The position numbers and the translations under genes are program-made. A DNA stretch of 64,000 nucleotides from Candidatus Cryptobacteroides sp. (GTDB lineage: Bacteria; Bacteroidota; Bacteroidia; Bacteroidales; UBA932). Numbering within the stretch: the stretch's first letter is position 1; the number at the start of each line of letters is the position of its first letter. The stretch lies in contig JAZUFA010000056.1 in assembly GCA_045640445.1 (NCBI GenBank), forward strand, positions 4,208-68,207, given 5' to 3'. The notes beneath the pieces were generated by a model that saw nothing but the letters and a program-made list of their open reading frames with translations, was not told the origin of the DNA and did not search any database. Below are positions 40,861 through 58,434 of the stretch, piece by piece.

Positions 40861-40861
40861 A

Positions 40862-41572: not shown

Positions 41573-42498
41573 CCGACAAACTTCTTTTTCAAGGCATATC
41601 CGGTTCTCCTGACCCATTCCTTGAAACGCAGCAGCCATACGGGCTTGCGATACTCCGCACAAACGGATTGAGGCTGCCGTGCCCAGTCGACTTTGTCAAG
41701 TTCCTGCTGTGCCAACTGTCTGTATTTGGAAGAAAGGTAATATGGTTTCAGCGAGTAAACGCGGATATTGTCGACCAATTGCTTGAATCCGGGGTTGCCC
41801 GTCTCTTCAGCAGCGTAGCGGCCAAGGTTCCAGAGGAAGTGGTTTTCAGGAGCACGCAAAGGTCCAACGCCTCTGGCATTTACGTCAACATCCTGATTGT
41901 AGTATGCCAAACGGCTGTTCAGGAAAGCAACTTTATGTTTGAAAGCAATACGCAGCCAAAGGTCGAAGTCCTCACCCAACTTGAGCTCCGGACGGAAGCA
42001 TCCTACTTCCTCGAACACGCCACGAGGGATAGCAACGGATATGGAGGTAACAGGCATCTGCATTATCCTTGCATACTCGGCAAAATAGTCGATATATCCC
42101 GTAGGTATGTCTATCCTGGACTGCGTCCGTCCGTTCTTGACATAGTAATAATTGACTGCATAGATTCCCGCCTCCGGATAATCCCTTATGAATGCATCCA
42201 TCTCCTCAAGGAAAGTCGGAGCCCACCAGTCATCCGCATCAAGAAAACAGATGTATTCACCCTTAGCCAGCGCAATGCCATTGTTCCTGGCAACGCTGAC
42301 GCCCTGGTTGGGTTGGCTCGTCACTACGGCTGAAGTCCCGTCAAGAACAGACTTGACGACATCTAGCGATTCGTCGGTGCTGCCATCATCGATGACGATA
42401 AGCTCGTAATCCTCAAACGTCTGAGCCAGCACACTGCGGACAGACTTTTCGGCGTAAGGAGCCTTGTTGTACAATGGGATGATTACTGAGAATCTCAT
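41569..42498 (-). CDS. Glycosyltransferase family 2
   Basis: SVIIPLYNK, IDDGSTD, FLDADD, GEDFDLW. Confidence 0.92.
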   Translation of the reverse strand: MRFSVIIPLYNKAPYAEKSVRSVLAQTFEDYELIVIDDGSTDESLDVVKSVLDGTSAVVTSQPNQGVSVARNNGIALAKGEYICFLDADDWWAPTFLEEMDAFIRDYPEAGIYAVNYYYVKNGRTQSRIDIPTGYIDYFAEYARIMQMPVTSISVAIPRGVFEEVGCFRPELKLGEDFDLWLRIAFKHKVAFLNSRLAYYNQDVDVNARGVGPLRAPENHFLWNLGRYAAEETGNPGFKQLVDNIRVYSLKPYYLSSKYRQLAQQELDKVDWARQPQSVCAEYRKPVWLLRFKEWVRRTGYALKKKFVG

Positions 42499-43379
42499 AC
42501 TCTGCCGCGCAGTTTCAAATATATGCGGTATATACCGGGGAACATGAACCTCAAGCGCATCGATTTTTTCTGCAGGGAGAAGTCAATCTTTGCCAGCACC
42601 CTATCGAGGTCAGCTTCATATTGCTTCATTCCCGTATACTGGAATATCCTGTAAAGGCACTCCCTGTCAAAGAAGAAACGAAAATCCCTGTCGGCTGCCC
42701 TGTAGGCATCATACTTCTCGATATAGAACGGAAGATGCTTCTCGAACGGCTTGAATCTGGTCATAGCCCGGTTTTCGGACTCCTGTTCATAATAGGCCAG
42801 CGTCTTCTCATAATATGCCCCGGGATACTCCATGGCGACACGCCACCACATGTCGAGGTCTTCGCCATATGCCATCCTCTCATCGAAAAGTCCTACTTTG
42901 TCGAAAGCCTCCTTGCGTATTGTCGTACTGCTGCCTGTCCAGCACCAGGGATTCGTTGTCCAGGGATTCCTGACATAGCCACGGAATCCGCTGCCATCCT
43001 TCTCATCCTGGGGCTTGCCGGCTACGCTCAATCCCAGGCCGAGGCCATATATGCCTGCCTCCGGGCAATCTTCAATCAAGCGGACGAGTTCCTCCAAATA
43101 GGTAGGATCCCATTTGTCATCGGCGTCCAGGAAGGAAACATACTCGCCCTTCGCCAACGCTATTCCCATATTCCTGGCAGATGACACCCCACCATTCTCC
43201 TTGCGGACATAACGTACCCGCGCATCGTCATAGCTCAGAACCACATCCGCGCCACCATCGGCAGAACCGTCATCCACCACGATGACTTCGAAGTCAGCAT
43301 ATGTCTGCACGAGCACACTGTCAAGTGTCCCGCCTATGCTTGAAGCCTTGTTATATAACGGTATGACTACGGAAATCAT
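42495..43379 (-). CDS. Glycosyltransferase family 2
   Basis: SVVIPLYNK, VDDGSAD, FLDADD, GEDLDMW. Confidence 0.92.
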   Translation of the reverse strand: MISVVIPLYNKASSIGGTLDSVLVQTYADFEVIVVDDGSADGGADVVLSYDDARVRYVRKENGGVSSARNMGIALAKGEYVSFLDADDKWDPTYLEELVRLIEDCPEAGIYGLGLGLSVAGKPQDEKDGSGFRGYVRNPWTTNPWCWTGSSTTIRKEAFDKVGLFDERMAYGEDLDMWWRVAMEYPGAYYEKTLAYYEQESENRAMTRFKPFEKHLPFYIEKYDAYRAADRDFRFFFDRECLYRIFQYTGMKQYEADLDRVLAKIDFSLQKKSMRLRFMFPGIYRIYLKLRGRV

Positions 43380-44383
43380 ATGAAACGTCCAAGATTCTCA
43401 GCCTGGCCGGTCTTGTTTTTGCCAATGAGCTTGAGCCTTAACCTCAGCAAGGACTCCAGCGGCACATACCCTATGACCCTGCCGACCACGGAATATACGC
43501 GGAAGAAGCGGTTCTTCCAGCAAAGCACCCTCCTCGCATTGGCGAGGCAATGCTTGCCGTCCTCCTTGTTCCTTGCAGCGAAGGCAGCCCTCGATCTTGC
43601 AAACCAGAACTTGAAGAGGCCCGGTCTGAACTCGTATGGAAGTTCACCGTATTTTGCCACGAGCAGGTCCTCGAACTTCTGATATGTATAGGCCAGATAT
43701 GCCGAAGTCTCATAATTGCGGGCTTTGGTGCCGGTCGATATCCTGTATATCGAATCATGCTTTCTGTAACTGAAAGTGATTGCAGGGCAGTAGACGAAGC
43801 GGCAACCGCTGTTCGCCAGTCTGAAGTGCAGGTCATACTCCTGCCCGCGGGGCAGCTTCTCATCAAAGAAGCCCACGGCCTCCAGCAGCTCGCGCCTGTG
43901 CAGGGGTGTGGTAATGAGGACTTCCCAATGGGAATAGAAGAAGAGTTCCTGATTGGCCTCGAGTTCCTCCTGCCAGGAGAACTTGTGCTCGTGTATCACC
44001 TGACCTTCCGGATTGATGAAGTTATAGTCTCCAAAAGGTATCTCATTCTCTCCAAGTCCCTCTATCTGTGCGATCTGAACTGACAAACAGTCCTTATCAA
44101 GCAGATCATCTGCGTCCAGGAACTTCACGAATGCGCCGGAAGACTCCCTGAGCGCCCTGTCCCTGGCCACGCAGGCGCCGCTGTTCTTTTGGGTTATGAC
44201 CTTGATTCTGTCTGATTCAAATGCCCTCGCCGCCTCGTATGACCCATCGGAGGATCCGTCATCGACTATTATCAATTCCCAATCGGTATACGACTGGGCA
44301 AGGACGGAGCCGATTGCCGCCTCAACGTATGCCGCATCATTGAAGAGCGGCATTATAATTGACACCTTCTTATTGTCCCTCAT
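43376..44383 (-). CDS. Glycosyltransferase family 2
   Basis: SIIMPLFN, VDDGSSD, FLDADD, QEYDLHFR. Start set at ATG 44383. Confidence 0.9.
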   Translation of the reverse strand: MRDNKKVSIIMPLFNDAAYVEAAIGSVLAQSYTDWELIIVDDGSSDGSYEAARAFESDRIKVITQKNSGACVARDRALRESSGAFVKFLDADDLLDKDCLSVQIAQIEGLGENEIPFGDYNFINPEGQVIHEHKFSWQEELEANQELFFYSHWEVLITTPLHRRELLEAVGFFDEKLPRGQEYDLHFRLANSGCRFVYCPAITFSYRKHDSIYRISTGTKARNYETSAYLAYTYQKFEDLLVAKYGELPYEFRPGLFKFWFARSRAAFAARNKEDGKHCLANARRVLCWKNRFFRVYSVVGRVIGYVPLESLLRLRLKLIGKNKTGQAENLGRFI

Positions 44384-45323
44384 TCCAGCTTGACTTAGCG
44401 AAATCCAACATCTTATCGAGATACCAGTCATTATAGGACGCCAGCACACAGCCATTCGGAGTGAAAGTCATCTCTCCGAAGATGGTCTTTCCGTCAACCT
44501 CGTATACATCAAACCGGCAATACTCAAAACTTCGGCACAGGTCTTCGGCCATATTGACCATCCCGGCCAGGTTTCCGGGCCGGGCTATCTCCTTCCTGTT
44601 CGTATGACGGCACTCCCTGACGCCTTCGGTCCTGTTCCATGACAGGTCGTAATCATCGAGGCTCACTTCCGCATGCTGGGCGTCGGGATTTCTGTCATAT
44701 CCCACCTCGCAGGAGAAAACCTTGCCATTGATTACGTGGAATTTGTAATCTGTAAGAGAAGAACTGTCCAATGCATCCAGATACCTCTCGACGACAATCT
44801 TCGGCTCTATCATGGAATACTGCCATTCCCCCGAAAGAAGCCCGAAGTTTCTGTCTGCCAGCCATTCGCGGAATTTTGCAGCCTGTTCAGGCCAGCAGAT
44901 GGACGACTTGTCCTTACAGATCAGGTTCCTGCCGGAAGCGTTGTTCATCTTCATTACGAAACTTGAGGGCAGGGACTCGAAGTCTATGTCATCGACACTG
45001 TCGTATACCCCATACAGTTCATTCAATGTATGGCCGTATCCTGCTGCCTCGACAAACTCCCTGACGGCATATTTATCCGCGCACTGGATTATCATGCCGC
45101 GGTTCCCGCCTTTGCTGTTCTTAAGCGACAAAGCCATCAGCCACTGGTTGAAGTCCCCGGGGTCGTCCCACCTGATTCTCCGACCTGTCCAGTTGAAATA
45201 GAACATGGACAGATATGCCTTCAGATGGTGCTTCGACATGCTCAGGGAAAGAGGCTTGATGCTCAGAAGCATCTTCACAAAGTCTCTCCTTAACCAATAG
45301 ATATAATGGCTTATGCTTTTCAT
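44370..45323 (-). CDS. TupA-like ATP-grasp amidoligase
   Basis: DKYAVREFV, LPSSFVMKMNNASG, PKIVVERYL, DYKFH, RFDVY, FGEMTFTP. Start set at ATG 45323. Confidence 0.88.
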   Translation of the reverse strand: MKSISHYIYWLRRDFVKMLLSIKPLSLSMSKHHLKAYLSMFYFNWTGRRIRWDDPGDFNQWLMALSLKNSKGGNRGMIIQCADKYAVREFVEAAGYGHTLNELYGVYDSVDDIDFESLPSSFVMKMNNASGRNLICKDKSSICWPEQAAKFREWLADRNFGLLSGEWQYSMIEPKIVVERYLDALDSSSLTDYKFHVINGKVFSCEVGYDRNPDAQHAEVSLDDYDLSWNRTEGVRECRHTNRKEIARPGNLAGMVNMAEDLCRSFEYCRFDVYEVDGKTIFGEMTFTPNGCVLASYNDWYLDKMLDFAKSSWNEGQ

Positions 45324-46228
45324 TTCCTGCAGATTGAAATAACATTCTTCACCAAGGATTTCATCGAAGGCTTGACGAAAAACAGCGACAACGCAAGCCC
45401 GATGCACCGGAAAAAGCCTGCGCCTGACGCCTTCGAGGCATTGATGAAGGCCTGGATACGGGCCGCATATGCATTCCTCAAATTCTTTCCTTCGGATGTA
45501 TTCCTGTTATGCCTGTAAAGTTCTTCATATACCAGCATGTCCATCCTTGCCGACTGACAGGGGGACATGGTATGATACATGCTGTCGTCGTGGACAGTCC
45601 GCACGCCACCGACAAAATTGAAGACATAGCCTTTGCCCTGAAGCAGCATGAGCAGGATCATGTGAGAATCCCTGAAATATTCATACTCGTCATACCAGTC
45701 CAGGCTGAATGACTCTCTCCTGAACACCATTGAGAAAGGATATGTTATCCAGTTATGGTAAAATATCTCGGGCGTCAGGTCGAAGCCGGCACCATCGGAA
45801 GCCACGAAACGCTCAAACGCGTTTTCAAACAACACCTCGCCCGACTTCTCGACCATGCGGTTATGAAAACAAATTGAGTAGTCAGGGTTCGACTCCAGAA
45901 AGTCGGCCTGCTTCTGTAATTTGAACTCATCCGTCCAATAATCGTCGCCCTCACATAATGCTACATACCGGCCGCGCGCCAACCCCATGGCGCGCCGTTC
46001 ATTCTGCAGGGCACCTGCATTTTTCTCAGACAGGACAAGACGGATCAGGTCGGGGAACCTGCGCGCATAGTCCTCACATATCGCCCTGGTTCCATCTGTG
46101 CTGCAGTCATCCGCTATGATGAGTTCAACAGGGAAATTCACCTTCTGCATCAATACACCCTCAATACATTTCCGGATGTATGGCTCATGATTATATGTTA
46201 TGGTGACGACAGATAGAAGCGGATCCAT
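45320..46228 (-). CDS. Glycosyltransferase family 2
   Basis: SVVTITYNHE, ADDCSTD, ALCEGDDYW, KLQKQ. Confidence 0.9.
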   Translation of the reverse strand: MDPLLSVVTITYNHEPYIRKCIEGVLMQKVNFPVELIIADDCSTDGTRAICEDYARRFPDLIRLVLSEKNAGALQNERRAMGLARGRYVALCEGDDYWTDEFKLQKQADFLESNPDYSICFHNRMVEKSGEVLFENAFERFVASDGAGFDLTPEIFYHNWITYPFSMVFRRESFSLDWYDEYEYFRDSHMILLMLLQGKGYVFNFVGGVRTVHDDSMYHTMSPCQSARMDMLVYEELYRHNRNTSEGKNLRNAYAARIQAFINASKASGAGFFRCIGLALSLFFVKPSMKSLVKNVISICRK

Positions 46229-46230
46229 AT

Positions 46231-46522
46231 TTATTCCATCATTTTACGAACGATCCGGTTCAGCTTCCATCAAAACGTTTCGCATACCGAGGAGAACACG
46301 GGAAGTAACATCATACAGATCCTGCCCCTGCTGCATGATATTCAGGTCATAATCCTGCACAACACCAAAGATATCGAGCACCTGGTCCAGCATCTCGCGA
46401 TGCTGTCCTGTCACGCATACTATCGTCTTGAAACTATCCGGATTTTTCTGGAACTCCTTGACCAGGGGGCACATCTTGATAGCCTCCGGACGGGTTCCGA
46501 AAACAAGCATTACTGTTTTCAT
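46231..46522 (-). pseudogene. wecB: Internally deleted UDP-GlcNAc 2-epimerase (non-hydrolysing)
   Basis: Intact WecB N-terminus (VFGTRPEAIKM, TGQHREMLDQVL) stops after 92 aa, just before the expected VLVHGDT. An out-of-frame 'RIVRKMME*' tail follows. Confidence 0.88.
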
Positions 46523-47290
46523 CTACACTAAAGTATAATTTTTGAGCAGTTCCTTTGTTCCCTCCCTGCCATTGAACATCATCACGTCAAGTATCGATAG
46601 GCCAGGTTCCTGGAAACCATTATGCTGAGGATAGGATATATCTCCGGTCTTGACGAACAAAAGATCAATCCCGTATTCAGCAAACTCATGCTTGTCGTAA
46701 AGGGCCTGCCCTCCTATCGCATTTATGAAAGTCCGGGCACCTTCCCGCCTGCACATCTCGATAACACGGGCAGTCTTTTTGATCGGAGAAGTCTTCTCCA
46801 TATATGGGAATCTCCCATAACCGAGAGATTCGATGGTTGACAAGTCTTCCTCCATGTCGAGGAAACGCGAGTTATCATATTCTATCTCTGTCCGGATACC
46901 CAGATGTTCAGCGATTTCCATGACACAGGCAGCATTCAGTTCATACAGATATTCATATCGTCTGTTCAGCAGTTTCTCCACCAAAGGATACGTTTCGGCA
47001 TAATATGGCGCCTTATTGTAATTCGAAGCAATGGTGAGAAGCAGATTCCTGGCCCACGGTTTTGAATTGTCTATCCTCACCTCCCGTATCATCTGATTCG
47101 AACTCTTATGAAGGAGCGGCACCGTGAACTGATATATCCTGCCGTCTTTCAAAAGCAGTCTGTTCCTGTTCATCCACGCTTCCTTGATGAAGTTCAGGTT
47201 ACTGTACAGGATATATTTGTCCACGGCAGCAATTGCCTGGAAGTATCCGATGTACGGCATGAAGTACGGCTGCATTATAGCGAGTTTCAT
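46523..47290 (-). CDS. wbqC: WbqC-family protein
   Basis: MQPYFMPYIGYFQ, WMNRNR, YNKAPY, INAIGG..LY, LSILDVMMFNG. Confidence 0.88.
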   Translation of the reverse strand: MKLAIMQPYFMPYIGYFQAIAAVDKYILYSNLNFIKEAWMNRNRLLLKDGRIYQFTVPLLHKSSNQMIREVRIDNSKPWARNLLLTIASNYNKAPYYAETYPLVEKLLNRRYEYLYELNAACVMEIAEHLGIRTEIEYDNSRFLDMEEDLSTIESLGYGRFPYMEKTSPIKKTARVIEMCRREGARTFINAIGGQALYDKHEFAEYGIDLLFVKTGDISYPQHNGFQEPGLSILDVMMFNGREGTKELLKNYTLV

Positions 47291-47293
47291 AAA

Positions 47294-48400
47294 CTACTTT
47301 ACAATCAGGTCAATGACTCTTTGGATATCATCCTCACTCAGCAGATGATGCATAGGCAGGCAGATAACCTCATCGGCGAGCCTCGTGGCTACCGGCAGAT
47401 TCTCAGGTACAGCCGAAGGCAGGGATGAATAGCTGTCGAATGTGCTGATGAGCGGGTAGAAATATCTGCGGCCGAGGACTGCATGCGCTTTCATCTCCGC
47501 GTAGAGTTCGTCGCGTGTTTTACCGTATTTTTCCGCATCAACAAAGATCGGGAAGTATGAATAATTGTGGCGAACACCGGGTGTGTCCTCGAAGAAGCGG
47601 ATGCCGGGCACTCCGCGCAGAGCCTCGCGGTAACGTTCTGCGGCAGTCTTGCGGGCGGCAATGGCAGAGTTCACCTGGCGCAGGTTCAGCAGGCCGTAGG
47701 CGCTGCGGACCTCGTCAACCTTGCCGTTGATACCGGGGCCCACGACGGTGGTCTCGTCCTCGAAACCGAAGTTGCGCAGATAATCAATCCTGCATTTCAT
47801 TTCCCCGGTACGGCAGACCAGGGCGCCGCCTTCCAGAGTGTTATACACTTTCGTTGCATGGAAGCTGAGAGTTGAGATGTCACCTTCGTTCAGGATGCTC
47901 TTCCCATCCACCTCAACGCCAAAGGCATGAGCCGCATCGTAAATGACCTTGAGCCCATATTTGTCGGCAACCGCCTGGATTGCAGCAGTGTCGCAAGGCT
48001 GTCCGTAGCAATGAACGGGCATGATGGCAACAGTATCGGGCGTAATGGCGGCCTCAATCTTTGCAGGATCGAGATTACAGGTCACAGGGTCGATGTCGGC
48101 GAATACCGGCTTCAGACCGTTCCACCAGATGCTATGGGTTGTTGCCACGAAACTGTAAGGAGTGGTAATCACCTCACCCTTGCGTATGTCAAGGGCCTGA
48201 AGAGCCGTAATCAACGGAATGGTTCCATTGGTGAACAAGCTGATATAAGGCACCTTGAGGTACTCGGCAAGTTCATGCTCAAGCCTCTCGTGGTACTCAC
48301 CGAGATTGGTCACCCAATGCTTCGCCCAGATGTCCTCCATCATTTCGCGGAGTTCATCGAGATTCGGGAGCAAAGGGGATGTTACTGTTATCTGTTTCAT
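47294..48400 (-). CDS. vioA: DegT/DnrJ PLP sugar aminotransferase (VioA-like, dTDP-Qui4N)
   Basis: NGT, DAAHAFG, SFHATKVYNTLEGG, GINGK, RRYFYP. Start set at ATG 48400. Confidence 0.8.
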   Translation of the reverse strand: MKQITVTSPLLPNLDELREMMEDIWAKHWVTNLGEYHERLEHELAEYLKVPYISLFTNGTIPLITALQALDIRKGEVITTPYSFVATTHSIWWNGLKPVFADIDPVTCNLDPAKIEAAITPDTVAIMPVHCYGQPCDTAAIQAVADKYGLKVIYDAAHAFGVEVDGKSILNEGDISTLSFHATKVYNTLEGGALVCRTGEMKCRIDYLRNFGFEDETTVVGPGINGKVDEVRSAYGLLNLRQVNSAIAARKTAAERYREALRGVPGIRFFEDTPGVRHNYSYFPIFVDAEKYGKTRDELYAEMKAHAVLGRRYFYPLISTFDSYSSLPSAVPENLPVATRLADEVICLPMHHLLSEDDIQRVIDLIVK

Positions 48401-49227
48401 TTTCCAAATAATCTGCGAAGGGCAACGCCACAACTATGCTTGATGCGCTGAAGTTTCGGATGCTTTATCTTGAATTCATATTTTCGGCAGAAGGCATGGT
48501 ACTTCCCACCAAAGAAAGAGTCCATTGCACGCAGATCTGCCACCAAGGCAGCCTTCTTCTCGCCGTCCGTCAAGCCGGCCCACTGGCCCTTGTCCGATAT
48601 GCGGTAGACAGATGTCTGCTGGCGCAGAATCGCAATCGGCCCGAATTGAGCCATATATGCACCCAGCTCCCAGTCGGCCATATTCAAGTCGTAGAACGGA
48701 TCCGGGATTGACCGCACAAGGCTCCCCCTGAACATGCAGGCGGAGAGGTTCCCGAGCTGATTGCCAGAGCCTAACTGCTCGTCAATACCAACGGTGCGAA
48801 AATCCCCCATGCTACCCCAGCCACCCTCTTTGAACTCGCCACCAGGCATAAGCCTGAAATGACGGTTCATCGACATCGAATACTCTTCATGCGCTGTCAG
48901 GAAATCAATATGCTGCTGGAGATGTCCTTCAAGCCAGTAGTCATCTCCTTCGAGAATGGCGACATAATCCCCCATGCAAGCAGCAAAGGCCTGCTTGTAA
49001 TTCCGGATATATCCGATATTCTTCTCTTTCGGCAGGAATTCAGCCGGGATGCAGGAACCTGCCAGATGCTCCTTGATGATGTCTGGAGTGCCATCGGTCG
49101 AAACATCATCGGCGACGATGAGTTTCAACTTAACGTCTTCAGCGAGTCGTTGAGCAAGAATGCTGTCAACAGCCCTGGCTATGAAGGCTTCCTGATTATA
49201 GGAGATCAGTATGATGTCGAGTTCCAT
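48397..49227 (-). CDS. Glycosyltransferase family 2
   Basis: ISYNQE, ADDVSTD, ILEGDDYW. Start set at ATG 49227. Confidence 0.88.
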   Translation of the reverse strand: MELDIILISYNQEAFIARAVDSILAQRLAEDVKLKLIVADDVSTDGTPDIIKEHLAGSCIPAEFLPKEKNIGYIRNYKQAFAACMGDYVAILEGDDYWLEGHLQQHIDFLTAHEEYSMSMNRHFRLMPGGEFKEGGWGSMGDFRTVGIDEQLGSGNQLGNLSACMFRGSLVRSIPDPFYDLNMADWELGAYMAQFGPIAILRQQTSVYRISDKGQWAGLTDGEKKAALVADLRAMDSFFGGKYHAFCRKYEFKIKHPKLQRIKHSCGVALRRLFGK

Positions 49228-49228
49228 C

Positions 49229-50125
49229 TTACTTCTTTCTGAAAAGTCCCGCAATCTTCTTCACGGGAGCAACTATGGCATTGCCAATACGATATGCCAA
49301 TGAAGCCCTCACCTCGAGCTCCTTGTCATATACGGCCTGATGTACCTGTATGTCAACATACTTGTCAAAGACTCGTTTGGTGTCCTCGTACATGATGGCA
49401 TCCACATCAAGGCCTCTGCGGACGGCTGCCCTGCGGCGGGCATCGAGGTTCCAGTACCAAAGGCGGAAATAATTCTTCTGGTCAGTAGCGATGGAGTGAT
49501 CGTGACCCTTGATGACGTAATTGTAGCAGAACTCGTCGAGCGCCACAATGCCGCCGGCCTCCTCGATCACGAAATAAAGGTCCTGGTCGACTCCGGCATA
49601 AGCCTTGGGATTGATTCCCACAGTCTTGTCATAAAACAACTTCTTGTATGAAGTGAAGTGCATGCAGCCCCACCAGCGATAGTCGAAATAAGTCCTGCCA
49701 CCGCTGAGGTCCGGAAGTTCCGCCTCATCTATGACATTGAAGTTGGTGTCACAGTAATGGGCCTTCGAATACACCACAGAAGCGTTCTCATTCTCAAGAT
49801 GTGCCTTCACATGCTTCTCAAGGGCCTCAGGCAGAAGAGTGTCGTCAGGGTCGAGGAAACCGCAGATCTCTCCGTGGGCCTCGGCGGCGCAACGGTTCTT
49901 GGTGAACCCGCAGCCGCTGTTCTTCTCGTTGAAATAGATATGAATTCTCGGGTCCTCACCAAGTATCTTGTACAATTCAAGAGAGTTGTCGGTGGAACCG
50001 TCGTCCACCAGGATTATCTCCCAGTTAGTGTATGTCTGCTTCCTGACACTTTCGACCGCGTCAGGAAGATAATCGCCATTGTTGTAGTTGGCGACAAGGA
50101 CAGAAAACAGAGGATTATTGTCCAT
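49229..50125 (-). CDS. Glycosyltransferase family 2 with C-terminal amphipathic tail
   Basis: SVLVANYN, VDDGSTD, FLDPDD; C-terminal 'SLAYRIGNAIVAP'. Confidence 0.88.
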   Translation of the reverse strand: MDNNPLFSVLVANYNNGDYLPDAVESVRKQTYTNWEIILVDDGSTDNSLELYKILGEDPRIHIYFNEKNSGCGFTKNRCAAEAHGEICGFLDPDDTLLPEALEKHVKAHLENENASVVYSKAHYCDTNFNVIDEAELPDLSGGRTYFDYRWWGCMHFTSYKKLFYDKTVGINPKAYAGVDQDLYFVIEEAGGIVALDEFCYNYVIKGHDHSIATDQKNYFRLWYWNLDARRRAAVRRGLDVDAIMYEDTKRVFDKYVDIQVHQAVYDKELEVRASLAYRIGNAIVAPVKKIAGLFRKK

Positions 50126-51194
50126 GCTGATTGTCAAGGCTCGCCATGAGCCATTTTTGTGAATTCTCAGACATCTTCTTCAAAGCGGATGTCATATCAT
50201 CGGTGGAACTGCAGCGCAACATATCCGCAGAAGGAGCACCTATCCCGGCAAGGAGTTGCATTACACGGCCACTCAAACCAGGCTGCGATGCATAGAAGAA
50301 AGGCTTCCCGAAAACAAGCGACAATGCCACCCCATGGAAGGAAGACGTGACGACATACTCGGCTGAATAGAGGTCGCGCAGGAAGTCCAGCGGGCCGTGT
50401 GCCAACTTGTCTGACTTTCCTTCAGGGAACTTGAGCACCTGACCGGAATACCGGACAATCGGAAGGCCTCTCTGCTTTGAAAGTTCTGATGCCTTTGCCT
50501 CAACTTCGGGAATATTGCAGAGATTGTAAAGCAGAATATGCCTCTTCGTGCTGTAGTTGTCAAGACCTGCGAGGGTAACCCACTCCTGTGCAGAAAGAAG
50601 GAATACAGGATCACATACAAGCGATGCCGACAGCCCGGCTTTGCCTGCGAGGAACTCCTGAAGGTCCTTTTCCCTGACGCTCAACGCTGCAAATCTGCCA
50701 AGGCTGCCCTTGACGAACTCCACATCCTCTGTTGACCCGGCCTCGATCGGGCCCATGCTTGCCGCATAAGAAAGCATCTTCGTTGCCTGATAGCCACCGC
50801 CACCGAAATACACCGGATTGAAGGACTCGCAACCGGGAAGATGCTGCTTGCGCCAGATCTGGTCGCTGCCGTAGATTATGACATCATATGACTTTGCTGC
50901 CGACAAGCTTAGATTTCTCTTTGCAAAAAGCACACAACTGCGATGTCTTCTGGCAGCCAGGAACTTCATTGCCAGCGCGCGGACCAAGTACTTGACTTTG
51001 CCAGGAATACTCTTGCTTGCAAAGACCGCCTTGTCAAAATACTCGTGACGATAGAGCCCGTCATGATACTCAGGCCAATAGTCGATGACATTCACCTCAT
51101 GTCCCAGACTCGCCACATATGACTTCAGAGCCCATGCCTGAAGCTGGGCACCATAGTTCTGAGACCTGTGATATGTCAGAATACCGACCTTCAT
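50115..51194 (-). CDS. Polysaccharide pyruvyl transferase family protein
   Basis: NYGAQLQAWAL, GSDQIW, SYAASMG, SVRE, DPVFLL, TSSFHG. Start set at ATG 51194. Confidence 0.88.
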   Translation of the reverse strand: MKVGILTYHRSQNYGAQLQAWALKSYVASLGHEVNVIDYWPEYHDGLYRHEYFDKAVFASKSIPGKVKYLVRALAMKFLAARRHRSCVLFAKRNLSLSAAKSYDVIIYGSDQIWRKQHLPGCESFNPVYFGGGGYQATKMLSYAASMGPIEAGSTEDVEFVKGSLGRFAALSVREKDLQEFLAGKAGLSASLVCDPVFLLSAQEWVTLAGLDNYSTKRHILLYNLCNIPEVEAKASELSKQRGLPIVRYSGQVLKFPEGKSDKLAHGPLDFLRDLYSAEYVVTSSFHGVALSLVFGKPFFYASQPGLSGRVMQLLAGIGAPSADMLRCSSTDDMTSALKKMSENSQKWLMASLDNQHGQ

Positions 51195-51199
51195 TGTTT

Positions 51200-52039
51200 T
51201 CACTTGACTAAAAGCACTTCGCGGGTGCAGGACTTGCGGCACAACTTGTGGGCGGCCTGTGCCAGTTTGACAAGCATGAGCACCTGCCAGTTCTTTGCAT
51301 TTCTATCGTTAGATATCCAATTGGGGGTCTTCGGAGACCAGCAGGCGCCGCCGATCCTGATACCCTTCAACCGGTTCATAACGTCAGAGTCACAACGCTT
51401 GAACACCGACCCTGCACTGGGCTTCGAGCCGTCCTGAGTATTTGTCACAAGGGAAATCCTGTCACGTATGGCCGCCTCGACCTGCTCTGCAGGAATGCTG
51501 TCCATCTTGAGAACCACTTTTAGAATTATCATCCCATTCCCGCAAAATACCGAATGCCTGTGGGCAAACTCACAGTCAGCCTTGCCGAGTGTGACAATGT
51601 CACCCGTCGCAGGGTCGAAGCATTCAACTGATACCACAAAATCGGCAATCGACTGGTGGAATACCTCTGCCCGGCCGGCATTCATATATACTGCGCCGCC
51701 CACCGTGCAGGGCACGGAAAAGAGATACTCCATGCCTCCAAGATTGCTGCTCTGCATTGTACGGATCAACTTCTGGATACGGACTGATGCGGAGCACCCG
51801 ACCATGTTGCCTGAGACAGAGATTTCATCCACCATCTCCGACAGAAGAATCACAGTCTTGTGCAACTTTGCGGGCAGTATCACATTACTGCCTCCCGCAA
51901 GGATGAAATACGGGCCGGACTGCTGCCTTACTGATTCTACAAGCTCTCCTGCACTCCCGGGAAAGAGCACGGTATCGGCGACACAATGCAGGCGCATCGT
52001 GTTGTGGCTGTAGAGATCATATCCGTGTTCAGTCCTCAT
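51200..52039 (-). CDS. MurB-like FAD-dependent enolpyruvyl reductase paralogue
   Basis: GGSNVI, PCTVGGAVYMNAG, FAHRHS, PSAGSVFK, IGGA-x2-S, C-terminal REV; 279 aa, short type-II-like. Confidence 0.85.
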   Translation of the reverse strand: MRTEHGYDLYSHNTMRLHCVADTVLFPGSAGELVESVRQQSGPYFILAGGSNVILPAKLHKTVILLSEMVDEISVSGNMVGCSASVRIQKLIRTMQSSNLGGMEYLFSVPCTVGGAVYMNAGRAEVFHQSIADFVVSVECFDPATGDIVTLGKADCEFAHRHSVFCGNGMIILKVVLKMDSIPAEQVEAAIRDRISLVTNTQDGSKPSAGSVFKRCDSDVMNRLKGIRIGGACWSPKTPNWISNDRNAKNWQVLMLVKLAQAAHKLCRKSCTREVLLVK

Positions 52040-53306
52040 CCGTTATTGCAAAATATCCTGAATTGGACTTTGTAAAGGACGTACCGGTGTAAAGGCTGCA
52101 GTATCCCTCCTTGTGCACTTTCATTATGCGGGGCATATCGACAAGATTTCCACCGTTCGAATCATTCAGTTTGAGAGAAAGATAGTATGATCCGTTGACA
52201 AGGTTTTTGGGCAGATAGACTTTCTCCCTGATTATGTGCTTTCCTGAATCCAGACGGTAGATATGTCCGGCGCCGCTCTGGGAAGAGAACGATGCCACCA
52301 TATCACTGCCCTCGAACAGAGAAGCAACCAGATAAATATCGTGATGGGTCGTAGCCGAAAGCTCCACCTCGATATCGAGCGCATTGTCTGAATCCTTTGT
52401 CAGGATATAGAGTTCCGGAGCTTTTCCACCGACTTTAAGGTCGAGTATTTCGATATCCTTGGCCTTGTACTGCACATCCCGCAAGATGCTGAAGCTGTCC
52501 GCATCGCCACGCTCACAGGATGAGTAATAATAGCCTATGCATTCATCTGTATTGCCCATGAATCCGATGGTTCCCTTGTCGAGCAGCACGCATGACTTGC
52601 ACAGGGTGGAGATGCTCGCCATGTTGTGGCTCACGAACAGGACGGTACGTCCTTCTCCCCTGCTGACGTCCTGCATTTTGGCAATTGCCTTCTTCTGGAA
52701 CTCGGCGTCACCTACTGCAAGAACCTCGTCGACGACAAGGATCTCCGGTTCGAGATGAGCGGCAACGGCAAAGCCCAGACGTACGGTCATTCCGGAAGAA
52801 TATCGCTTTACAGGAGTGTCAAGATATCTCTCGCAACCGGAAAAGTCGACTATCTCATCAAGTTTGGCTGTGATTTCCTGTTTGGTCATACCCATGATGG
52901 CGCCGTTGAGATAGATGTTCTCGCGGCCTGTCATCTCGGGATGGAAGCCGGTGCCGACCTCGAGAAGGGAACCGATACGCCCGCGGGCGCGGATAGTGCC
53001 CGTGGTGGGTGCGGTGACCTTCGAGAGGAGTTTGAGCAACGTACTTTTGCCAGCACCGTTCTTGCCGATGATACCGACAACATCGCCCTGCTCAACCTTG
53101 AAGTCGATGTCCCGGAGAGCCCAGACGAACTCGCTGTCGGCTGCTGATGATCGGTCATTGACGGAGCCTATCTTGAGGAAAGGATCCTCCTTGTGACGTA
53201 CGTTCATTGTCCACCAACGATTGAGGTCAGCGCCGAGTGTCCTGGTTGACACAAGGCCAAGTCTGTACTGCTTGCTGATATTGTTGAATTCTATTGCTGT
53301 TGCCAT
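52029..53306 (-). CDS. wzt: Polysaccharide ABC transporter ATPase with C-terminal extension
   Basis: GKNGAGKST, YSSGM, VVDEVLAVGD, VSH; about 160-aa Wzt_C-like tail. Start set at ATG 53306. Confidence 0.93.
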   Translation of the reverse strand: MATAIEFNNISKQYRLGLVSTRTLGADLNRWWTMNVRHKEDPFLKIGSVNDRSSAADSEFVWALRDIDFKVEQGDVVGIIGKNGAGKSTLLKLLSKVTAPTTGTIRARGRIGSLLEVGTGFHPEMTGRENIYLNGAIMGMTKQEITAKLDEIVDFSGCERYLDTPVKRYSSGMTVRLGFAVAAHLEPEILVVDEVLAVGDAEFQKKAIAKMQDVSRGEGRTVLFVSHNMASISTLCKSCVLLDKGTIGFMGNTDECIGYYYSSCERGDADSFSILRDVQYKAKDIEILDLKVGGKAPELYILTKDSDNALDIEVELSATTHHDIYLVASLFEGSDMVASFSSQSGAGHIYRLDSGKHIIREKVYLPKNLVNGSYYLSLKLNDSNGGNLVDMPRIMKVHKEGYCSLYTGTSFTKSNSGYFAITDED

Positions 53307-53324
53307 ACGTAATCCTCCCTGCAA

Positions 53325-54209
53325 TTAAACCGTATCCATGAAATTCTTCTGGACCCTGTTGAATACAACCACTCCAAGGGATATGAGAACCACCATGAAG
53401 ACGAAGCTGTATATGAGCCAGCGCCAGCCCACGAAATCGCCGCAACCGAGGAACCCGTACTTAAAAGTCTCGATGATGGGAGTTACAGGGTTCAGACACA
53501 TGAGCGTATGTACGGGGATGCCACACCACACCATGCTATTAGTCTTACTGAGAGGATAGACGATAGGAGTAGCGTACATCCACAACTGCACAATAAAACT
53601 GAAAAGCACCTGCAAGTCGCGATATTTAGTGGTCATGGCAGAGATAAGAGTACCGAACCCGAGGGCAAGGCCGGCCAGCATTGCAACCAGTACAGGGAAC
53701 ATCAGAGCATACCAGGTGAAATGGGCCTGACAAGTCGGATCGAAGATTGAATATACGACATAGACTATCGCGAAGAAGCCGAACTGGATGCCGAATCTTA
53801 CGAGACCGCTGAGGACGTCGGCGATTGGCACCGCGAGACGGGGAAAATAGACCTTGCCGAAGATTCCGGCATTGTTCACGAAAGTGTTCGAGGTCTTGTT
53901 CAGGCAGTCGGCGAAGTACTGCCACATGCAGGTACCGGCCAGATAGAACAGAGGACGGGCGATGCCGTCGGTGGGGATGCCGGCGATGCCGCCGAAGACG
54001 ATCATGTACATGATCACGGTCAGGGCGGGCTGCACGACGAACCATACAGGGCCGAGGATGGTCTGCTTGTATTGGGTTATTATGTTACGCTTGATGAAAA
54101 GGGAGATGAGGTCCCTGTATTGCCAGATTTCCTTGAGGTTGACCTCAAAGAGGTTGTTCTTAGGCTTGATGACAGTTGTCCACTGCCCGGAGTCTTGTGT
54201 CTTTTTCAT
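53325..54209 (-). CDS. wzm: Polysaccharide ABC transporter permease
   Basis: QYKQTILGPVW, KVYFPRL, KYRDL, YATPIVYP, NPVTPII. Start set at ATG 54209. Confidence 0.93.
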   Translation of the reverse strand: MKKTQDSGQWTTVIKPKNNLFEVNLKEIWQYRDLISLFIKRNIITQYKQTILGPVWFVVQPALTVIMYMIVFGGIAGIPTDGIARPLFYLAGTCMWQYFADCLNKTSNTFVNNAGIFGKVYFPRLAVPIADVLSGLVRFGIQFGFFAIVYVVYSIFDPTCQAHFTWYALMFPVLVAMLAGLALGFGTLISAMTTKYRDLQVLFSFIVQLWMYATPIVYPLSKTNSMVWCGIPVHTLMCLNPVTPIIETFKYGFLGCGDFVGWRWLIYSFVFMVVLISLGVVVFNRVQKNFMDTV

Positions 54210-54276
54210 AGCACGGCTTCGCCCTCGTGGGTCCCATATGCACACGCGCGCATAGTAACCCCCGGGTATAATTACA

Positions 54277-54310: not shown

Positions 54311-55480
54311 CTAGTGGGACCTTTTCCTATGGAAAAGAATATTGGAGATGCTGCCGAAGAAATATTTCACATCCGTGCGGAAAGGAGCACGCAGATATGC
54401 CTCTATATAGCGGCGCTCGGACTCCTGGACTTCCTCCAGGGTTTTAGGTGTTTCCTTCTCGTAATAGAACGGAGGGAAAAGGCCTGGTTTAACCTGCGTC
54501 CTGAGCTTCTGCATCTCGGGAGAATACAGACTGAAATAGTGCCTTGAAAGCGGACGCACGCCCACCAGTTTCATCTGGCCCTTGAAGAGGTTTATGAACA
54601 TCGGGATCTCGTCGAGCCAGCAGGAACGGAGAAGCCTGCCTATCTCGTTCACACGGTAATCGTCAGCGAACTTGCCGCCTTCCCTCAGCCCGCCATGCTC
54701 GTACATATAAGGCTGCAAATACTCTGAGTAAGAGTACATTGTGCGGAACTTGTAGACACCGATGATATTACCATCCTTGCTGACACGAGGTAACTTTATC
54801 AGAGCTCCACAACTGGGTTCGTCGTCCCATATGGGCGCCTTGACCTTGCGGGCAAGCACGAAGAATTCACCGAAGCGGAAGCCTTCGTCAACCACCTCGA
54901 AGCCGGCTCTGTATAACCGGCCCATGACCTCGACCCTGTGGTAGGTTCTGTTGCGTCCTTTTGTAACCCAGAAATAGAACCATTTCGTGAGCTTGAGCTT
55001 GGGACACACACGATGCCAAAGGTAATGAAGGGCATAAAGGAACCATCCGACAGGTTTTGAATGCCTGTCGCGTATCATGCGCTTCTTCATCATCGCCGTA
55101 GTCGCATGGCACATAAGATACCCTCCATCCGCAAGAGATTCGTTGGCGCGGTTGAGGAAAGTATTCAGATGCCTTATGCGGTTCAGCCTCTTGTGCGAGA
55201 AGAAAAACTGAGGATTCTTGTAGGCAAACTGGCGCACGATATCGCCGCTGTCGGTGTCAAGCAGAACAGTGCTCTCCTGAAGCTCTCCGGCATGGGCGAG
55301 AAGCCATGGCCAGAGTTCATATCGGGGCAACTTTTTAGAAGCCTCATAGACCCTCAGGACATCGGGATTCTCAACCGACGAAATGTCGAGCTTAGCACCC
55401 GTGTCGGAGCCGTGTTCGGTGTATTTTGAGAGGTCGGGATCATACTGCAGTCTGACCCAAGGTTTCTTCTTGAAAATCAT
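54311..55480 (-). CDS. Priming phosphoglycosyl transferase (bacterial sugar transferase) with atypical N-terminal domain
   Basis: YKFRTMY, DYRVNEIGRLLR, LDEIP, MKLVGVRP, VKPG. Confidence 0.85.
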   Translation of the reverse strand: MIFKKKPWVRLQYDPDLSKYTEHGSDTGAKLDISSVENPDVLRVYEASKKLPRYELWPWLLAHAGELQESTVLLDTDSGDIVRQFAYKNPQFFFSHKRLNRIRHLNTFLNRANESLADGGYLMCHATTAMMKKRMIRDRHSKPVGWFLYALHYLWHRVCPKLKLTKWFYFWVTKGRNRTYHRVEVMGRLYRAGFEVVDEGFRFGEFFVLARKVKAPIWDDEPSCGALIKLPRVSKDGNIIGVYKFRTMYSYSEYLQPYMYEHGGLREGGKFADDYRVNEIGRLLRSCWLDEIPMFINLFKGQMKLVGVRPLSRHYFSLYSPEMQKLRTQVKPGLFPPFYYEKETPKTLEEVQESERRYIEAYLRAPFRTDVKYFFGSISNILFHRKRSH

Positions 55481-56598
55481 AATGCAGCAAGGAGCTTACA
55501 ACAAACGGTATCTATCTGTTCCTCAGTCAAATACGGATGCATTGGCAATGCCAGAGCACGCTGGCAGAGAGACTCTGCAAGAGGGCAGGAACGCAGCCCT
55601 TCAGAGCCCTCGAAAGCCTTCTGGAGATGCATCGGAAGGGGGTAATATACCATGGTTGGAATGCCCTCTTCCTTCAGGGATTTTTGCACATTTTCGCGCT
55701 GCTCGGAAGACTCCAAAAGTATGGAATATTGAGCCCAGCTGGAGCCGTATCCGGTCGGAATTGAAGGCACTTTGACAGCCCCCGAAAGGCGCTCGGAATA
55801 TGCTTTTGCAGCTGAGTTCACGTCCTCAAGTTCATACGCCTTGAAGGCCTTCAATTTCTCAAGGAGAACAGCCGCCTGAACCGTATCGAGACGGGAGTTC
55901 ATACCTATGCGGACATTCTCGTACTTGCAGTTTCCCTTGCCGTGAACACGGTAGCTGTCCATCAGTGCCGCCCACTCGTCATTGTCGGTGAAAACGGCCC
56001 CTCCGTCACCATAGCAGCCTAGTGGTTTTGCCGGGAAGAAGGACGTGGTGGCTATGTCGCCGAAAGAGCAGGCGCGGCGGCCGTCCATGCTGCCGCCAAA
56101 GCCCTGCGCGCCGTCTTCAAGGACAAGAAGGCCATAGGTGTCAGCGATCTCCCTTATGCGCCTGAAATCGGCAGGAAGGCCGAAAAGATCGACTGCAACG
56201 ACAGCCTTCGGCACAAGATTCCCCTCAGCACGGACTTCCACAACAGCCCTCTCGAGGTCAGCAGGATCAATATTGAAGGTATCCTCAAGGACATCGACAA
56301 AGACGGGCGTGGCGCCCTCGGCTGCAACAACCTCAGCGGATGCAAAGAATGTGAAATCAGGAACAAAAACGGCATCGCCGGGGCCGACGCCCCAGGCCTT
56401 AAGCGCCAATGCAAGCGCATCCGTGCCGTTGGCACAGGTCAGGCAATGCTTGACGCCGACATATTCTGCCAGTTCGGCTTCAAGTTGTTTGACCTCGGGG
56501 CCCATGATGTAGTGTCCGCCGGCCACAGCCTTGAGAATCGCAGCATCGATGCTTTCTGAAAGCATCTCATGCTGCTTGCGCAAATCCCTGAATTCCAT
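55477..56598 (-). CDS. wbpE: UDP-3-oxo-GlcNAcA aminotransferase
   Basis: CANGTDAL, EDGAQGFG, TSFFPAKPLGCYGDGG, GMNSRLDT; adjacent to wbpD and wbpA. Confidence 0.85.
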   Translation of the reverse strand: MEFRDLRKQHEMLSESIDAAILKAVAGGHYIMGPEVKQLEAELAEYVGVKHCLTCANGTDALALALKAWGVGPGDAVFVPDFTFFASAEVVAAEGATPVFVDVLEDTFNIDPADLERAVVEVRAEGNLVPKAVVAVDLFGLPADFRRIREIADTYGLLVLEDGAQGFGGSMDGRRACSFGDIATTSFFPAKPLGCYGDGGAVFTDNDEWAALMDSYRVHGKGNCKYENVRIGMNSRLDTVQAAVLLEKLKAFKAYELEDVNSAAKAYSERLSGAVKVPSIPTGYGSSWAQYSILLESSEQRENVQKSLKEEGIPTMVYYPLPMHLQKAFEGSEGLRSCPLAESLCQRALALPMHPYLTEEQIDTVCCKLLAAL

Positions 56599-56606
56599 AG
56601 TACTAA

Positions 56607-57113
56607 CTAGTCTGTCGGGCAGGAGTCAACTCTCTTGCCCTCAGCGTTCACCCACCCTATCTGACGGGCGGGAACACCGGCCATAAGTGCAAAGTCCGGG
56701 ACATCCGTGGTAACAACGGCGCCAGCCGCTATCATGGCGCACCGGCCTACGGTATGGCCGCACACTATCGTGCAATTTGCGCCAAGGGAAGCCCCTTCCT
56801 TAATCAAAGTCCTGTTATAGACCCCATGTACCGGATAGGCGGCACGGGGTACGGTAACGTTGGTGAACACACACGACGGCCCGCAGAAGACGTTGTCTTC
56901 GAGCGTGACGCCGCTGTACACCGACACATTGTTCTGTATCCTGCAGCCATTGCCTATGTGCACGCCGTCCGCAACGTTGACGTTCTGGCCGAGGGAGCAG
57001 TTCTCCCCTATTACCGCGCCAGCCTGGATGTGGCAGAAATGCCACACCTTGGTGCCGTCGCCGATGACAGCCCCTTCGTCAACGTAGGAACTCTCGTGTA
57101 CAAAAACAGCCAT
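56607..57113 (-). CDS. wbpD: UDP-GlcNAc3NA N-acetyltransferase (LbH)
   Basis: [51 protein letters not shown]. Confidence 0.88.
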
Positions 57114-57114
57114 G

Positions 57115-58428
57115 CTACAGTACTTCTATATTATCACGCGCGCACACGCGCTTCATCACGTTCTTGGTGTCAAAGATGGCCTTGGCATGAGCCTGGACGA
57201 ACTCGTAGTCCACCTTGGTATGCGCAGCCGTAACAACCACAAGGTCGCAGCTCTCGAGCAGTTCTGCCGTGAGTTCCGGCTCGCCCTTGACGGTCTCGCC
57301 CTTGTGGCGGAACTCAGGGATATACGGGTCGAAGTAGCAGACGTCGGCGCCCTCCTTCCTGAGGTTCATGTAAACCTCGATGGCGGGAGACTCGCGGTAG
57401 TCGTCGATGTCCTGCTTGTATGCCACGCCGAGCACGAGCACCTTAGCGCCATTGAGCGCCTTGGCAAAGCGGCGGTTAAGCATGTCGGCAGCACGGCTTA
57501 CGCAGTACTCGGGCATACGGTCGTTCACCATCATCGAAGCCTCGATCATCGAAGTGTGAAACCCGTACTCGCGGGCTTTCCAACTAAGATAATAAGGATC
57601 GAGAGGAATGCAGTGGCCACCAAGACCCGGGCCGGGATAGAACGGAGTGAAGCCGAAAGGCTTGGTCTTTGCCGCCTCTATCACCTCCCAGAGGTCTATT
57701 CCCATGCGGTTGCAGAGGATTGCAAGCTCGTTGATGAGACCGATGTTTATGTTGCGGTAGGTGTTCTCGAGAATCTTCGTCATCTCGGCAACGGCGGGAG
57801 AGCTGGCGCGGAAGACGCTGCCCTGCAGCACAGCCTCATACATGGCGCTGATGACCTCGCTGGCATCGGCACCCAGACCGCCTACAACCTTGGGGGTGTT
57901 CTTTGTCTTGTAGATGAGGTTGCCGGGATCCACACGCTCGGGTGAGAAGCCGAGATAGAAGTCCTCGCCGCACTTGAGGCCGGACTTCTCGAGAATGGGC
58001 TTGATGAGTTCCTCTGTGGTACCGGGATAGGTGGTGGACTCGAGGACAACCATCATTCCTGGGTGAAGATACTCAGCCACTGCTTCGGCGCTGCTGCGCA
58101 CGTAACTGATATCAGGCTGCTGATGTGCATCGAGAGGAGTAGGCACGCAGATGGCAACGAAGTCGACGTCCTTGATGAAGGAGAAGTCGCTTGTAGCGGA
58201 GAGCATGCCCTCGCTCACGAGCCGCTGCAGATCGGAATCCACAACATCGCCGATATAGTTGTGACCGGCATTCACCATGTCGACCTTCTGCTTCTGCACA
58301 TCGAATCCGATAGTGCGGAAACCGGCCTTTGCCTTTTCAACGGCAAGAGGTAGACCAACGTAGCCGAGGCCAACGACCCCGGCTACGATTGTTCTGTCCT
58401 CTATCTTTTTAAGAAGAGTATTTTTCAT
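57115..58428 (-). CDS. wbpA: UDP-GlcNAc 6-dehydrogenase
   Basis: [64 protein letters not shown] at 58428 (the track start 58431 is a TTG). Confidence 0.9.
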
Positions 58429-58434
58429 CAAGAA

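Follow-up and report, generated by a model that had tools for sequence, protein, structure and literature searches.

A MurB paralogue paired with a PF04230 transferase in a Candidatus Cryptobacteroides glycan locus: a candidate two-step module for lactyl-ether formation

Overview

A 64,000-nucleotide stretch of contig JAZUFA010000056.1 (positions 4,208 to 68,207, forward strand; assembly GCA_045640445.1, Candidatus Cryptobacteroides sp., Bacteroidales), hereafter the window, contains a glycan locus of roughly 30 kb in which a paralogue of the peptidoglycan enzyme MurB (murB2) is immediately upstream of a PF04230 polysaccharide pyruvyl transferase gene. The two gene products probably act in succession, the transferase by enolpyruvyl transfer from phosphoenolpyruvate (PEP) and MurB2 by MurB-type reduction to a likely (R)-1-carboxyethyl (lactyl) ether. 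This reading of the pair is based on operon layout, a separate murA–murB pair in the same genome, the fold and catalytic residues of MurB2, the linkage and fusion of the two genes, and the relatedness of the transferase to its counterparts in lactyl-ether loci. Lactyl ethers occur in many bacterial surface glycans, and as far as the literature searched extends the lactyl-ether module is known from genetics rather than from purified enzymes.

The gene pair and the housekeeping murB

The minus-strand gene order is wzm, wzt, murB2, PF04230 gene, GT2 genes:

53325..54245, minus strand: wzm, ABC-2 permease
52029..53324, minus strand: wzt, ATPase of the ATP-binding cassette (ABC) exporter with a C-terminal extension of ~160 amino acids (aa); start codon uncertain
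51200..52039, minus strand: murB2, MurB-fold flavin adenine dinucleotide (FAD) oxidoreductase paralogue, 279 aa (Pfam PF01565 and PF02873); predicted enolpyruvyl-ether reductase
50115..51194, minus strand: PF04230 pyruvyl transferase of the GSDQ/SFH subtype, 359 aa (Pfam); predicted enolpyruvyl transferase
48397..50137, minus strand: two GT2 glycosyltransferases directly downstream of the PF04230 gene (Pfam)

The arrangement described in the first-pass annotation, a 279-aa MurB-like gene that overlaps the wzt stop and lies 5 bp before the transferase, is borne out: the murB2 start overlaps wzt (end at 52029) by 11 bp, and the murB2 TGA (51200–51202) is followed by 5 bp and then the transferase ATG at 51194. 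A GTG at 51242 is a less likely transferase start, which would give a 375-aa protein overlapping murB2. The two downstream GT2 proteins are candidates for transfer or carriage of the modified sugar.

murB2 is not the housekeeping MurB. The separate murB that the first-pass annotation proposed to look for is encoded on contig C10, directly before murA, and passes the TIGR00179 cut-off with 178.8 bits; murB2, the only other TIGR00179 match in the genome, reaches 103.5 bits against a cut-off of 144.5 and is under every murB equivalog cut-off. The genome, which is 86.5% complete, has one PF04230 gene. Its named relatives and the genes around murB2 point to a Bacteroidales host. The distribution of murB2 is patchy: one of 24 same-genus genomes searched carries it, as a contig-end fragment, and among 40 relatives searched the paralogue occurs in just one other genome (a contig-end fragment).

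Fold and residues of MurB2

The murB2 product carries FAD_binding_4 and MurB_C domains, and its AlphaFold model, from a 48-row alignment, has a predicted local distance difference test (pLDDT) value of 93, with type II MurB structures as best matches (template modelling (TM) score 0.92 to 4PYT and 0.91 to 1HSK). Its motifs are GGSN (49–52), PCT (110–112), HR (160–161), SAGS (208–211), KRC (214–216), KTPNW (237–241), and REV (273–275). The earlier claim that the FAD motifs and the catalytic Arg, Ser, and Glu are kept holds, with R161, S211, and E274 aligning with invariant MurB columns. The Arg and Glu presumably have the same catalytic roles as in MurB. The catalytic Ser of MurB is named in the accessible text of PMC10058398.

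Across 88 MurB2 members, R161 and N52 are conserved in 100% and E274 in 99%, and position 211 is Ser or Thr (72% and 28%). The substitutions listed in the first-pass annotation are all present in the window protein, and the change from KHAGF to KTxNW runs through the whole family (T 82%, N 99%, W 95%), but PGT-to-PCT and YR-to-HR are rejected as family signatures on these residue frequencies, being local to the window protein (56% of members have G at position 111 and 73% have Y at position 160). That list was also incomplete: the larger change is that position 198 no longer has the type II Arg and that Arg194 (98%) and His264 (93%) have appeared. Arg194 is one helical turn before position 198, and judged from the modelled helix 184–201 it may take the place of the lost Arg. 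R215 is present in the window protein and is not conserved across the family.

MurB2 family and its linkage to the transferase

In the homologue search a score gap followed 49 proteins of about 280 aa, and 48 of these were used for a profile that gave 64 loci in genomes and the best 80 of 121 in metagenomes; the murB2 gene was recovered by open reading frame (ORF) calling in 142 of these 144 loci. The carriers belong to Bacteroidota, Bacillota, Campylobacter, Elusimicrobia, and haloarchaea; cultured ones include Natrinema pellirubrum DSM 15624 and Cetobacterium somerae CS2105-BJ. In the phylogeny and neighborhood survey that the first-pass annotation had proposed, MurB2 forms a group of its own: in a tree of 133 sequences, 87 of 88 MurB2 sequences (all except L062) are in one clade with FastTree support of 0.94, apart from both the type II housekeeping enzymes and another, CpsG-like clade.

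A transferase gene is within 3.5 kb of murB2 in 84 of 114 clusters (90% dereplication), 40 of them directly adjacent. Where each flank of the locus extends for 4 kb or more, the figure is 60 of 63 (90% dereplication) or 51 of 53 (70%), whereas a PF04230 match of any kind is present in only 42 of 111 genomes of the order, which indicates that the pairing is not due to chance. Transferase–MurB fusions occur in both domain orders, in six of the seven long matches tested and in seven of 22 longer relatives. In two haloarchaeal genomes MurB2 is the only MurB-like match and there is no MurA (best TIGR01072 score about 50 bits against a cut-off of 393), and therefore MurA cannot supply the substrate there; on a Natrinema plasmid the murB2–transferase pair is between genes for GT2, flippase, aglF, and aglM. 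UDP-glucose dehydrogenase is encoded in 53 of the MurB2 loci, but such genes are common in glycan loci.

Certain MurB-type genes show other arrangements. In the Ruminococcus-type loci L023, L039, L044, and L143, murB2 is away from any transferase, and in L023, L044, and L143 it is upstream of ilvD; five such genomes (L023, L029, L031, L039, and L044) have two to four PF04230 matches elsewhere. Protein P0148 has an FrhB-like Fe-S domain fused to MurB2, with two reductases in one chain and without a transferase. A Levilactobacillus plasmid (L154:5956-9537) carries a transferase–flippase–murB cassette flanked by insertion sequences, in which the murB is outside the MurB2 and CpsG clades and is possibly a third recruitment.

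The transferase belongs to the lactyl-ether subtype

According to the accessible part of PMC7685785, lactyl groups are present in Escherichia coli O58, O69, O124, O146, and O150 and ketals in O112ac, O149, and O156, and a frameshift in wfeP abolishes the lactyl group in O164 (the O124/O164 difference). Judged by gene order, wfeP is the PF04230 gene. We compared four of the five lactyl clusters (all but O58) and two of the three ketal clusters (all but O112ac). All four lactyl clusters have a PF04230 gene together with a reductase-type gene, FrhB-like in O69 and O124/O164 and nitroreductase in O146 and O150; a reductase-type gene is beside PF04230 in neither ketal cluster (O149 and O156) in the fetched stretches. 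In an O124/O164-type cluster (L220:6170-7305) the PF04230 gene is split over two ORFs, as in the published O164 frameshift.

A subtype hidden Markov model (HMM) was built from 44 transferases (non-dereplicated) whose genes directly adjoin murB2 in loci that have no other reductase. It scores the window transferase at 244 bits and all four lactyl E. coli proteins at 241–292 bits, and reports none of four ketal-type references (O149, O156, WcaK, and a putative ExoV, which we take to be such from its position). In pairwise comparison the window transferase matches the four lactyl proteins with E-values of 4e-38 to 2e-18 (25–30% identity), versus 0.68 or worse for the ketal proteins. A tree of 113 transferases places the window sequence and the MurB-linked and lactyl ones, 58 in all, in one clade of 87 members (support 0.91); the four ketal references fall outside it, the comparison being made without CsaB and Pvg1p sequences. 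By its sequence, then, the window transferase is of the wfeP subtype, that is, the lactyl type. All 87 clade members have R174 and H287, the putative PEP-binding residues; their equivalence to R148 and H308 of CsaB, as given in the accessible text of PMC10435577, rests on motif rather than structure. D111 of GSDQ is likewise invariant (87 of 87) and is a candidate base. The transferase has no sequence relative in the PDB at E up to 1, and the ESM Atlas gives PF04230 clusters only; a single-sequence fold (pLDDT 34) was not used.

Interchangeable partner genes

In an order-wide reverse survey, 111 genomes gave 54 PF04230 matches, of which 50 were retained after the window's own match and three below the cut-off were dropped. 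An FrhB, nitroreductase, or thiamine diphosphate (ThDP) enzyme gene is within 2.6 kb of 16 of the 20 subtype transferases versus six of the 30 others (Fisher p 4e-5, a value that overstates the significance, since copies from kin or from one genome are not independent); the six linked genes among the others indicate that the subtype is not the sole reductase-linked PF04230 group. MurB2 is beside none of the 50 surveyed genes, and MurB is therefore a rare partner. In the window's own genome (86.5% complete) there is no FrhB_C match, and the nitroreductase-type matches are weak only and on other contigs.

The relatives of the transferase region of P0289, a PF04230–MurB fusion, have diverse partners: among the 120 listed of 140, there are 18 with MurB, 38 with FrhB, 37 with nitroreductase, 21 with ThDP enzymes, two matched by two partner HMMs, and four matched by none. 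The partner HMMs were built partly from these same 120 proteins, and precomputed Pfam labels agree with them. The MurB fusion P0333 and the nitroreductase fusion P0336 are 96% identical over the transferase domain. MurB, FrhB, and nitroreductase thus appear from sequence to be interchangeable partners among related transferases, and because partners swap freely we do not claim that MurB2 and the transferase bind each other. In P0293 and 20 relatives, and in loci L081 and L101, MenD-like ThDP enzymes are fused or linked to the transferase, which may provide a route to 2,4-dihydroxypentanoate ethers. Such ethers are known (accessible text of PMC10609480), and a pyruvyl transferase has been proposed to act with SEPHCHC synthase (PMC13291983).

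The first-pass annotation had expected MurB2 and FrhB-like partners to be mutually exclusive. Per transferase this holds up, as six of the seven MurB2 loci with FrhB have a second transferase, but strict exclusion at the level of the locus is rejected on the counter-examples L070, L071, and L141; exclusion with other reductases appears strong, not absolute. In locus L061 (6969-8735) a nitroreductase gene immediately precedes a murB2 missing some 40 residues at the N-terminus, whereas murB2 is intact in the close relative L064, which has no nitroreductase; L061 likely captures a replacement of murB2 by nitroreductase in progress.

Enterococcus faecalis CpsG

P0289 matches, at 99.8% identity, the gene that occupies the cpsG position in record OR846590 (L226). 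There, the neighbors of the match are uppS, cdsA, a glycerophosphotransferase gene, two GT2 genes, a short ORF, glf, wzt, and wzm, and the gene order is that of Enterococcus faecalis cpsD–cpsK. The record is labelled Enterococcus phage and contains host chromosomal DNA (uppS, cdsA, and the cps operon); it has no cpsF-sized ORF between the second GT2 gene and cpsG. At this position of the E. faecalis cps operon, the accessible text of PMC2766626 places EF2489, 'MurB family protein (cpsG)'; the cps product has lactic acid at O-3 of galactofuranose (Galf) (PMC3060912, in part), and the lactyl group on capsule Galf is (R) (PMC8424007, in part). CpsG would be the only candidate for ether formation encoded in the cps operon, and by analogy this case supports the proposed chemistry, though from a different MurB clade. 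P0289 gave nothing in the ESM Atlas, and at the thresholds used it has no relative in the viral-contig scan or in 401 genomes of the class of G146. The literature searched, which largely excludes subscription journals, yielded no paper that gives a MurB paralogue or CpsG a part in making lactyl ethers.

Proposed mechanism and alternative explanations

We infer the chemical steps, cofactor, (R) configuration, and acceptor of the module as follows. The PF04230 enzyme would join a sugar hydroxyl to C2 of PEP with release of phosphate and halt at the enolpyruvyl ether, without ketal closure. This is the reaction of MurA, on an unrelated fold. FADH2 of MurB2, presumably formed with NAD(P)H, would then reduce the enol ether, with protonation at C2 via Ser211, to give the lactyl ether; the (R) configuration is predicted from N-acetylmuramic acid (MurNAc) and the E. 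faecalis capsule. Both steps would be cytoplasmic, on a nucleotide sugar (UDP-GlcLA has been proposed in print for O124) or on a lipid-linked chain, before Wzm/Wzt export. A flavin-dependent reduction that follows enolpyruvyl transfer accounts for the ThDP fusions, for the fact that a reductase is needed, and for MurB being that reductase. The same two steps were put forward in the first-pass annotation; they are now favored by the neighborhood survey, the fused proteins, the haloarchaea without MurA, and the resemblance to lactyl-ether O-antigen and capsule loci, while the chemistry itself stays a prediction.

Several findings weigh against this reading. The Arg at position 198, present in 24 of 24 type II housekeeping MurBs and presumably flavin-contacting, is lost in MurB2, and the type II set equivalent to Staphylococcus aureus R225, R242, and H271 (1HSK chain numbering, counted from the alignment) is not retained, the window protein having V198 and T238; the lost Arg198 and altered R242 and H271 columns mean that MurB2 activity and substrate are not assured. 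Replacement of the catalytic Ser by Thr, as noted for 28% of the family, counts in the same direction. Three of the 63 well-flanked MurB2 loci are without a nearby transferase, with PF04230 genes elsewhere in those genomes, and four of the 20 subtype transferases are without a partner within 2.6 kb: three of these orphans have no Pfam oxidoreductase partner (a NAD-dependent epimerase is near one) and an aldo-keto reductase is encoded about 1.5 kb from the fourth. L070 (a short contig) and L071 combine intact MurB2 and nitroreductase with one visible transferase, as L141 (also a short contig) combines MurB2 and FrhB with one. CpsG is a separate MurB recruitment, 26% identical to MurB2 and in another clade, and at 86.5% completeness an FrhB gene is not proven absent from the window's genome. 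Neither an enzyme assay of the module nor a glycan structure for this organism or any MurB2-clade carrier was found in the literature searched.

It is improbable, in our judgment, that the transferase makes an ordinary pyruvate ketal, or releases a tetrahedral phosphoketal, that MurB2 then opens reductively to the same ether. Characterized PF04230 enzymes are all ketal-forming in the accessible text of PMC6801904 and PMC10435577, and the comparative data point to the need for a reductase only, not to the nature of the intermediate. However, the known chemistry of MurB is enol-ether reduction, for which MurB2 retains Arg, Ser, and Glu; the window subtype is distinct from the ketal-formers, and its fusions to MenD-like ThDP enzymes would fit an acrylate-type acceptor, given the putative link to dihydroxypentanoate ethers. 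A role for MurB2 as a spare UDP-GlcNAc-enolpyruvate reductase, acting with the housekeeping MurA in MurNAc production, whether for peptidoglycan or for use as a sugar of the glycan, while the transferase independently makes a ketal, is very unlikely: the nearest folds are indeed true type II MurBs, some members are annotated as UDP-N-acetylmuramate dehydrogenase, and several Ruminococcus-type loci hold murB2 apart from a transferase, but haloarchaea carry the pair without MurA, the two genes are fused in both orders, the transferase is of the lactyl type, and murB2 is patchy even within the genus.

Little likelihood attaches, too, to MurB2 having another redox function on the glycan, or being a degenerate passenger, with the glycan keeping an unreduced enolpyruvyl ether or a ketal. 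DprE1 is an example of a vanillyl-alcohol oxidase (VAO)-family flavoprotein with another such function. The lost type II Arg, the second reductase alongside MurB2 in L070, L071, and L141, and the truncated murB2 of L061 would fit this explanation, but R161, E274, and N52 are kept across bacteria and archaea, MurB occupies the place of FrhB or nitroreductase in lactyl loci, the nitroreductase in place of the lost murB2 5' end in L061 reads as replacement when set against L064, and the model matches DprE1 far less well than MurB (TM about 0.47 vs 0.92).

Beyond the enolpyruvyl transfer and MurB-type reduction that we favor for the window pair, we lean slightly towards a broader scheme, in which the PF04230 subfamily is a second, MurA-unrelated class of enolpyruvyl transferase and swappable partners set the outcome: MurB (recruited at least twice) or FrhB would give an (R)-lactyl ether, nitroreductase an (S)-ether, and MenD-like enzymes chain extension. 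The relation of partner to handedness fits O124 (R, FrhB), O150 (S, nitroreductase), and the E. faecalis capsule (R, MurB), and also O69 and O146 if the title order of Knirel et al. (2017) is read as respective. The MurB partner is the most telling, because the known substrate of MurB is an enolpyruvyl ether, which points to the intermediate. If the scheme is true, a core peptidoglycan enzyme has been recruited for glycan tailoring, archaea included; E. faecalis CpsG has a candidate function, namely lactyl-ether synthesis for a capsule that is an enterococcal vaccine target; genomes would reveal which substituent is present and with which handedness; and many 'pyruvyl transferase' and 'murB' annotations would be reclassified.

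Other genes of the glycan locus

The C-terminal extension of Wzt (52029-52550, minus strand) gave no Pfam match below E 0.2; if it is a chain-end binder, the lactyl sugar could be a terminal cap. The order wzm–wzt–murB2 is also present in locus L002. Elsewhere on the minus strand (55477-58431 and 30999-31976), the window encodes a nucleotide-sugar dehydrogenase, a hexapeptide acetyltransferase, a DegT aminotransferase, and a Gfo/Idh/MocA oxidoreductase, assigned by Pfam only; this set resembles the WbpA/D/E/B route to 2,3-diacetamido-uronic acids. A second DegT, WbqC, a TupA-like ATP-grasp enzyme, and a FemAB-like GNAT protein (Pfam; 37617-48433, minus strand) suggest additional amino-acid or amide decorations on the same glycan. 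A 602-aa ORF without a Pfam match (60037-61845, plus strand) is in a region of strong AT skew.

Comparison with known systems

The module shares with MurA/MurB (TIGR00179; 1HSK and 4PYT) the MurB fold, the FAD motifs, the catalytic Arg, Ser, and Glu, and the proposed two-step logic from PEP to lactyl ether. Unlike housekeeping MurB, the window MurB2 is below the cut-off and in a separate clade, has changed substrate-side residues, and is partnered with PF04230 rather than MurA; MurB2 is located in glycan loci and also occurs in archaea without MurA.

The enterobacterial glycolactilic-acid gene pairs, namely wfeO/wfeP of E. coli O124 (Shigella dysenteriae 3) and those of the O69, O146, and O150 clusters, have a transferase of the same subtype and tree clade as the window. 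A linked reductase gene is present in both, but that of the window (murB2) is MurB-type rather than FrhB-like or nitroreductase, and the E. coli clusters use the Wzx/Wzy pathway whereas the window has Wzm/Wzt. The transferase half of the module is therefore already in print (wfeP of O124), and the MurB partner is the variant feature. In Klebsiella, K22 and K37 may correspond to a nitroreductase gene and K66 to an F420-hydrogenase-like gene. Four Klebsiella types with a transferase gene yet without pyruvylation are reported in the accessible text of PMC4616057, and the FrhB and nitroreductase genes may already have been assigned by Knirel et al. (2017), by Liu et al. (2008), or in the Klebsiella supplement.

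E. faecalis CpsG (EF2489, of the CPS-C/D diheteroglycan capsule) has the same PF04230 subtype (178 bits) and MurB domains, in an ABC-transporter glycan operon, but is one 817-aa fusion, and its MurB clade keeps the type II Arg. The ketal enzymes CsaB, Pvg1p, WcaK, and those of O149 and O156 belong to the same Pfam family, with the PEP-binding Arg and His apparently common to them and the window transferase; PF04230 enzymes are described only as ketal-forming in the accessible text of PMC6801904, PMC10435577, and PMC13721041. The window transferase differs from these enzymes in having GSDQ and SFH motifs where they have GG and RLH-like motifs.

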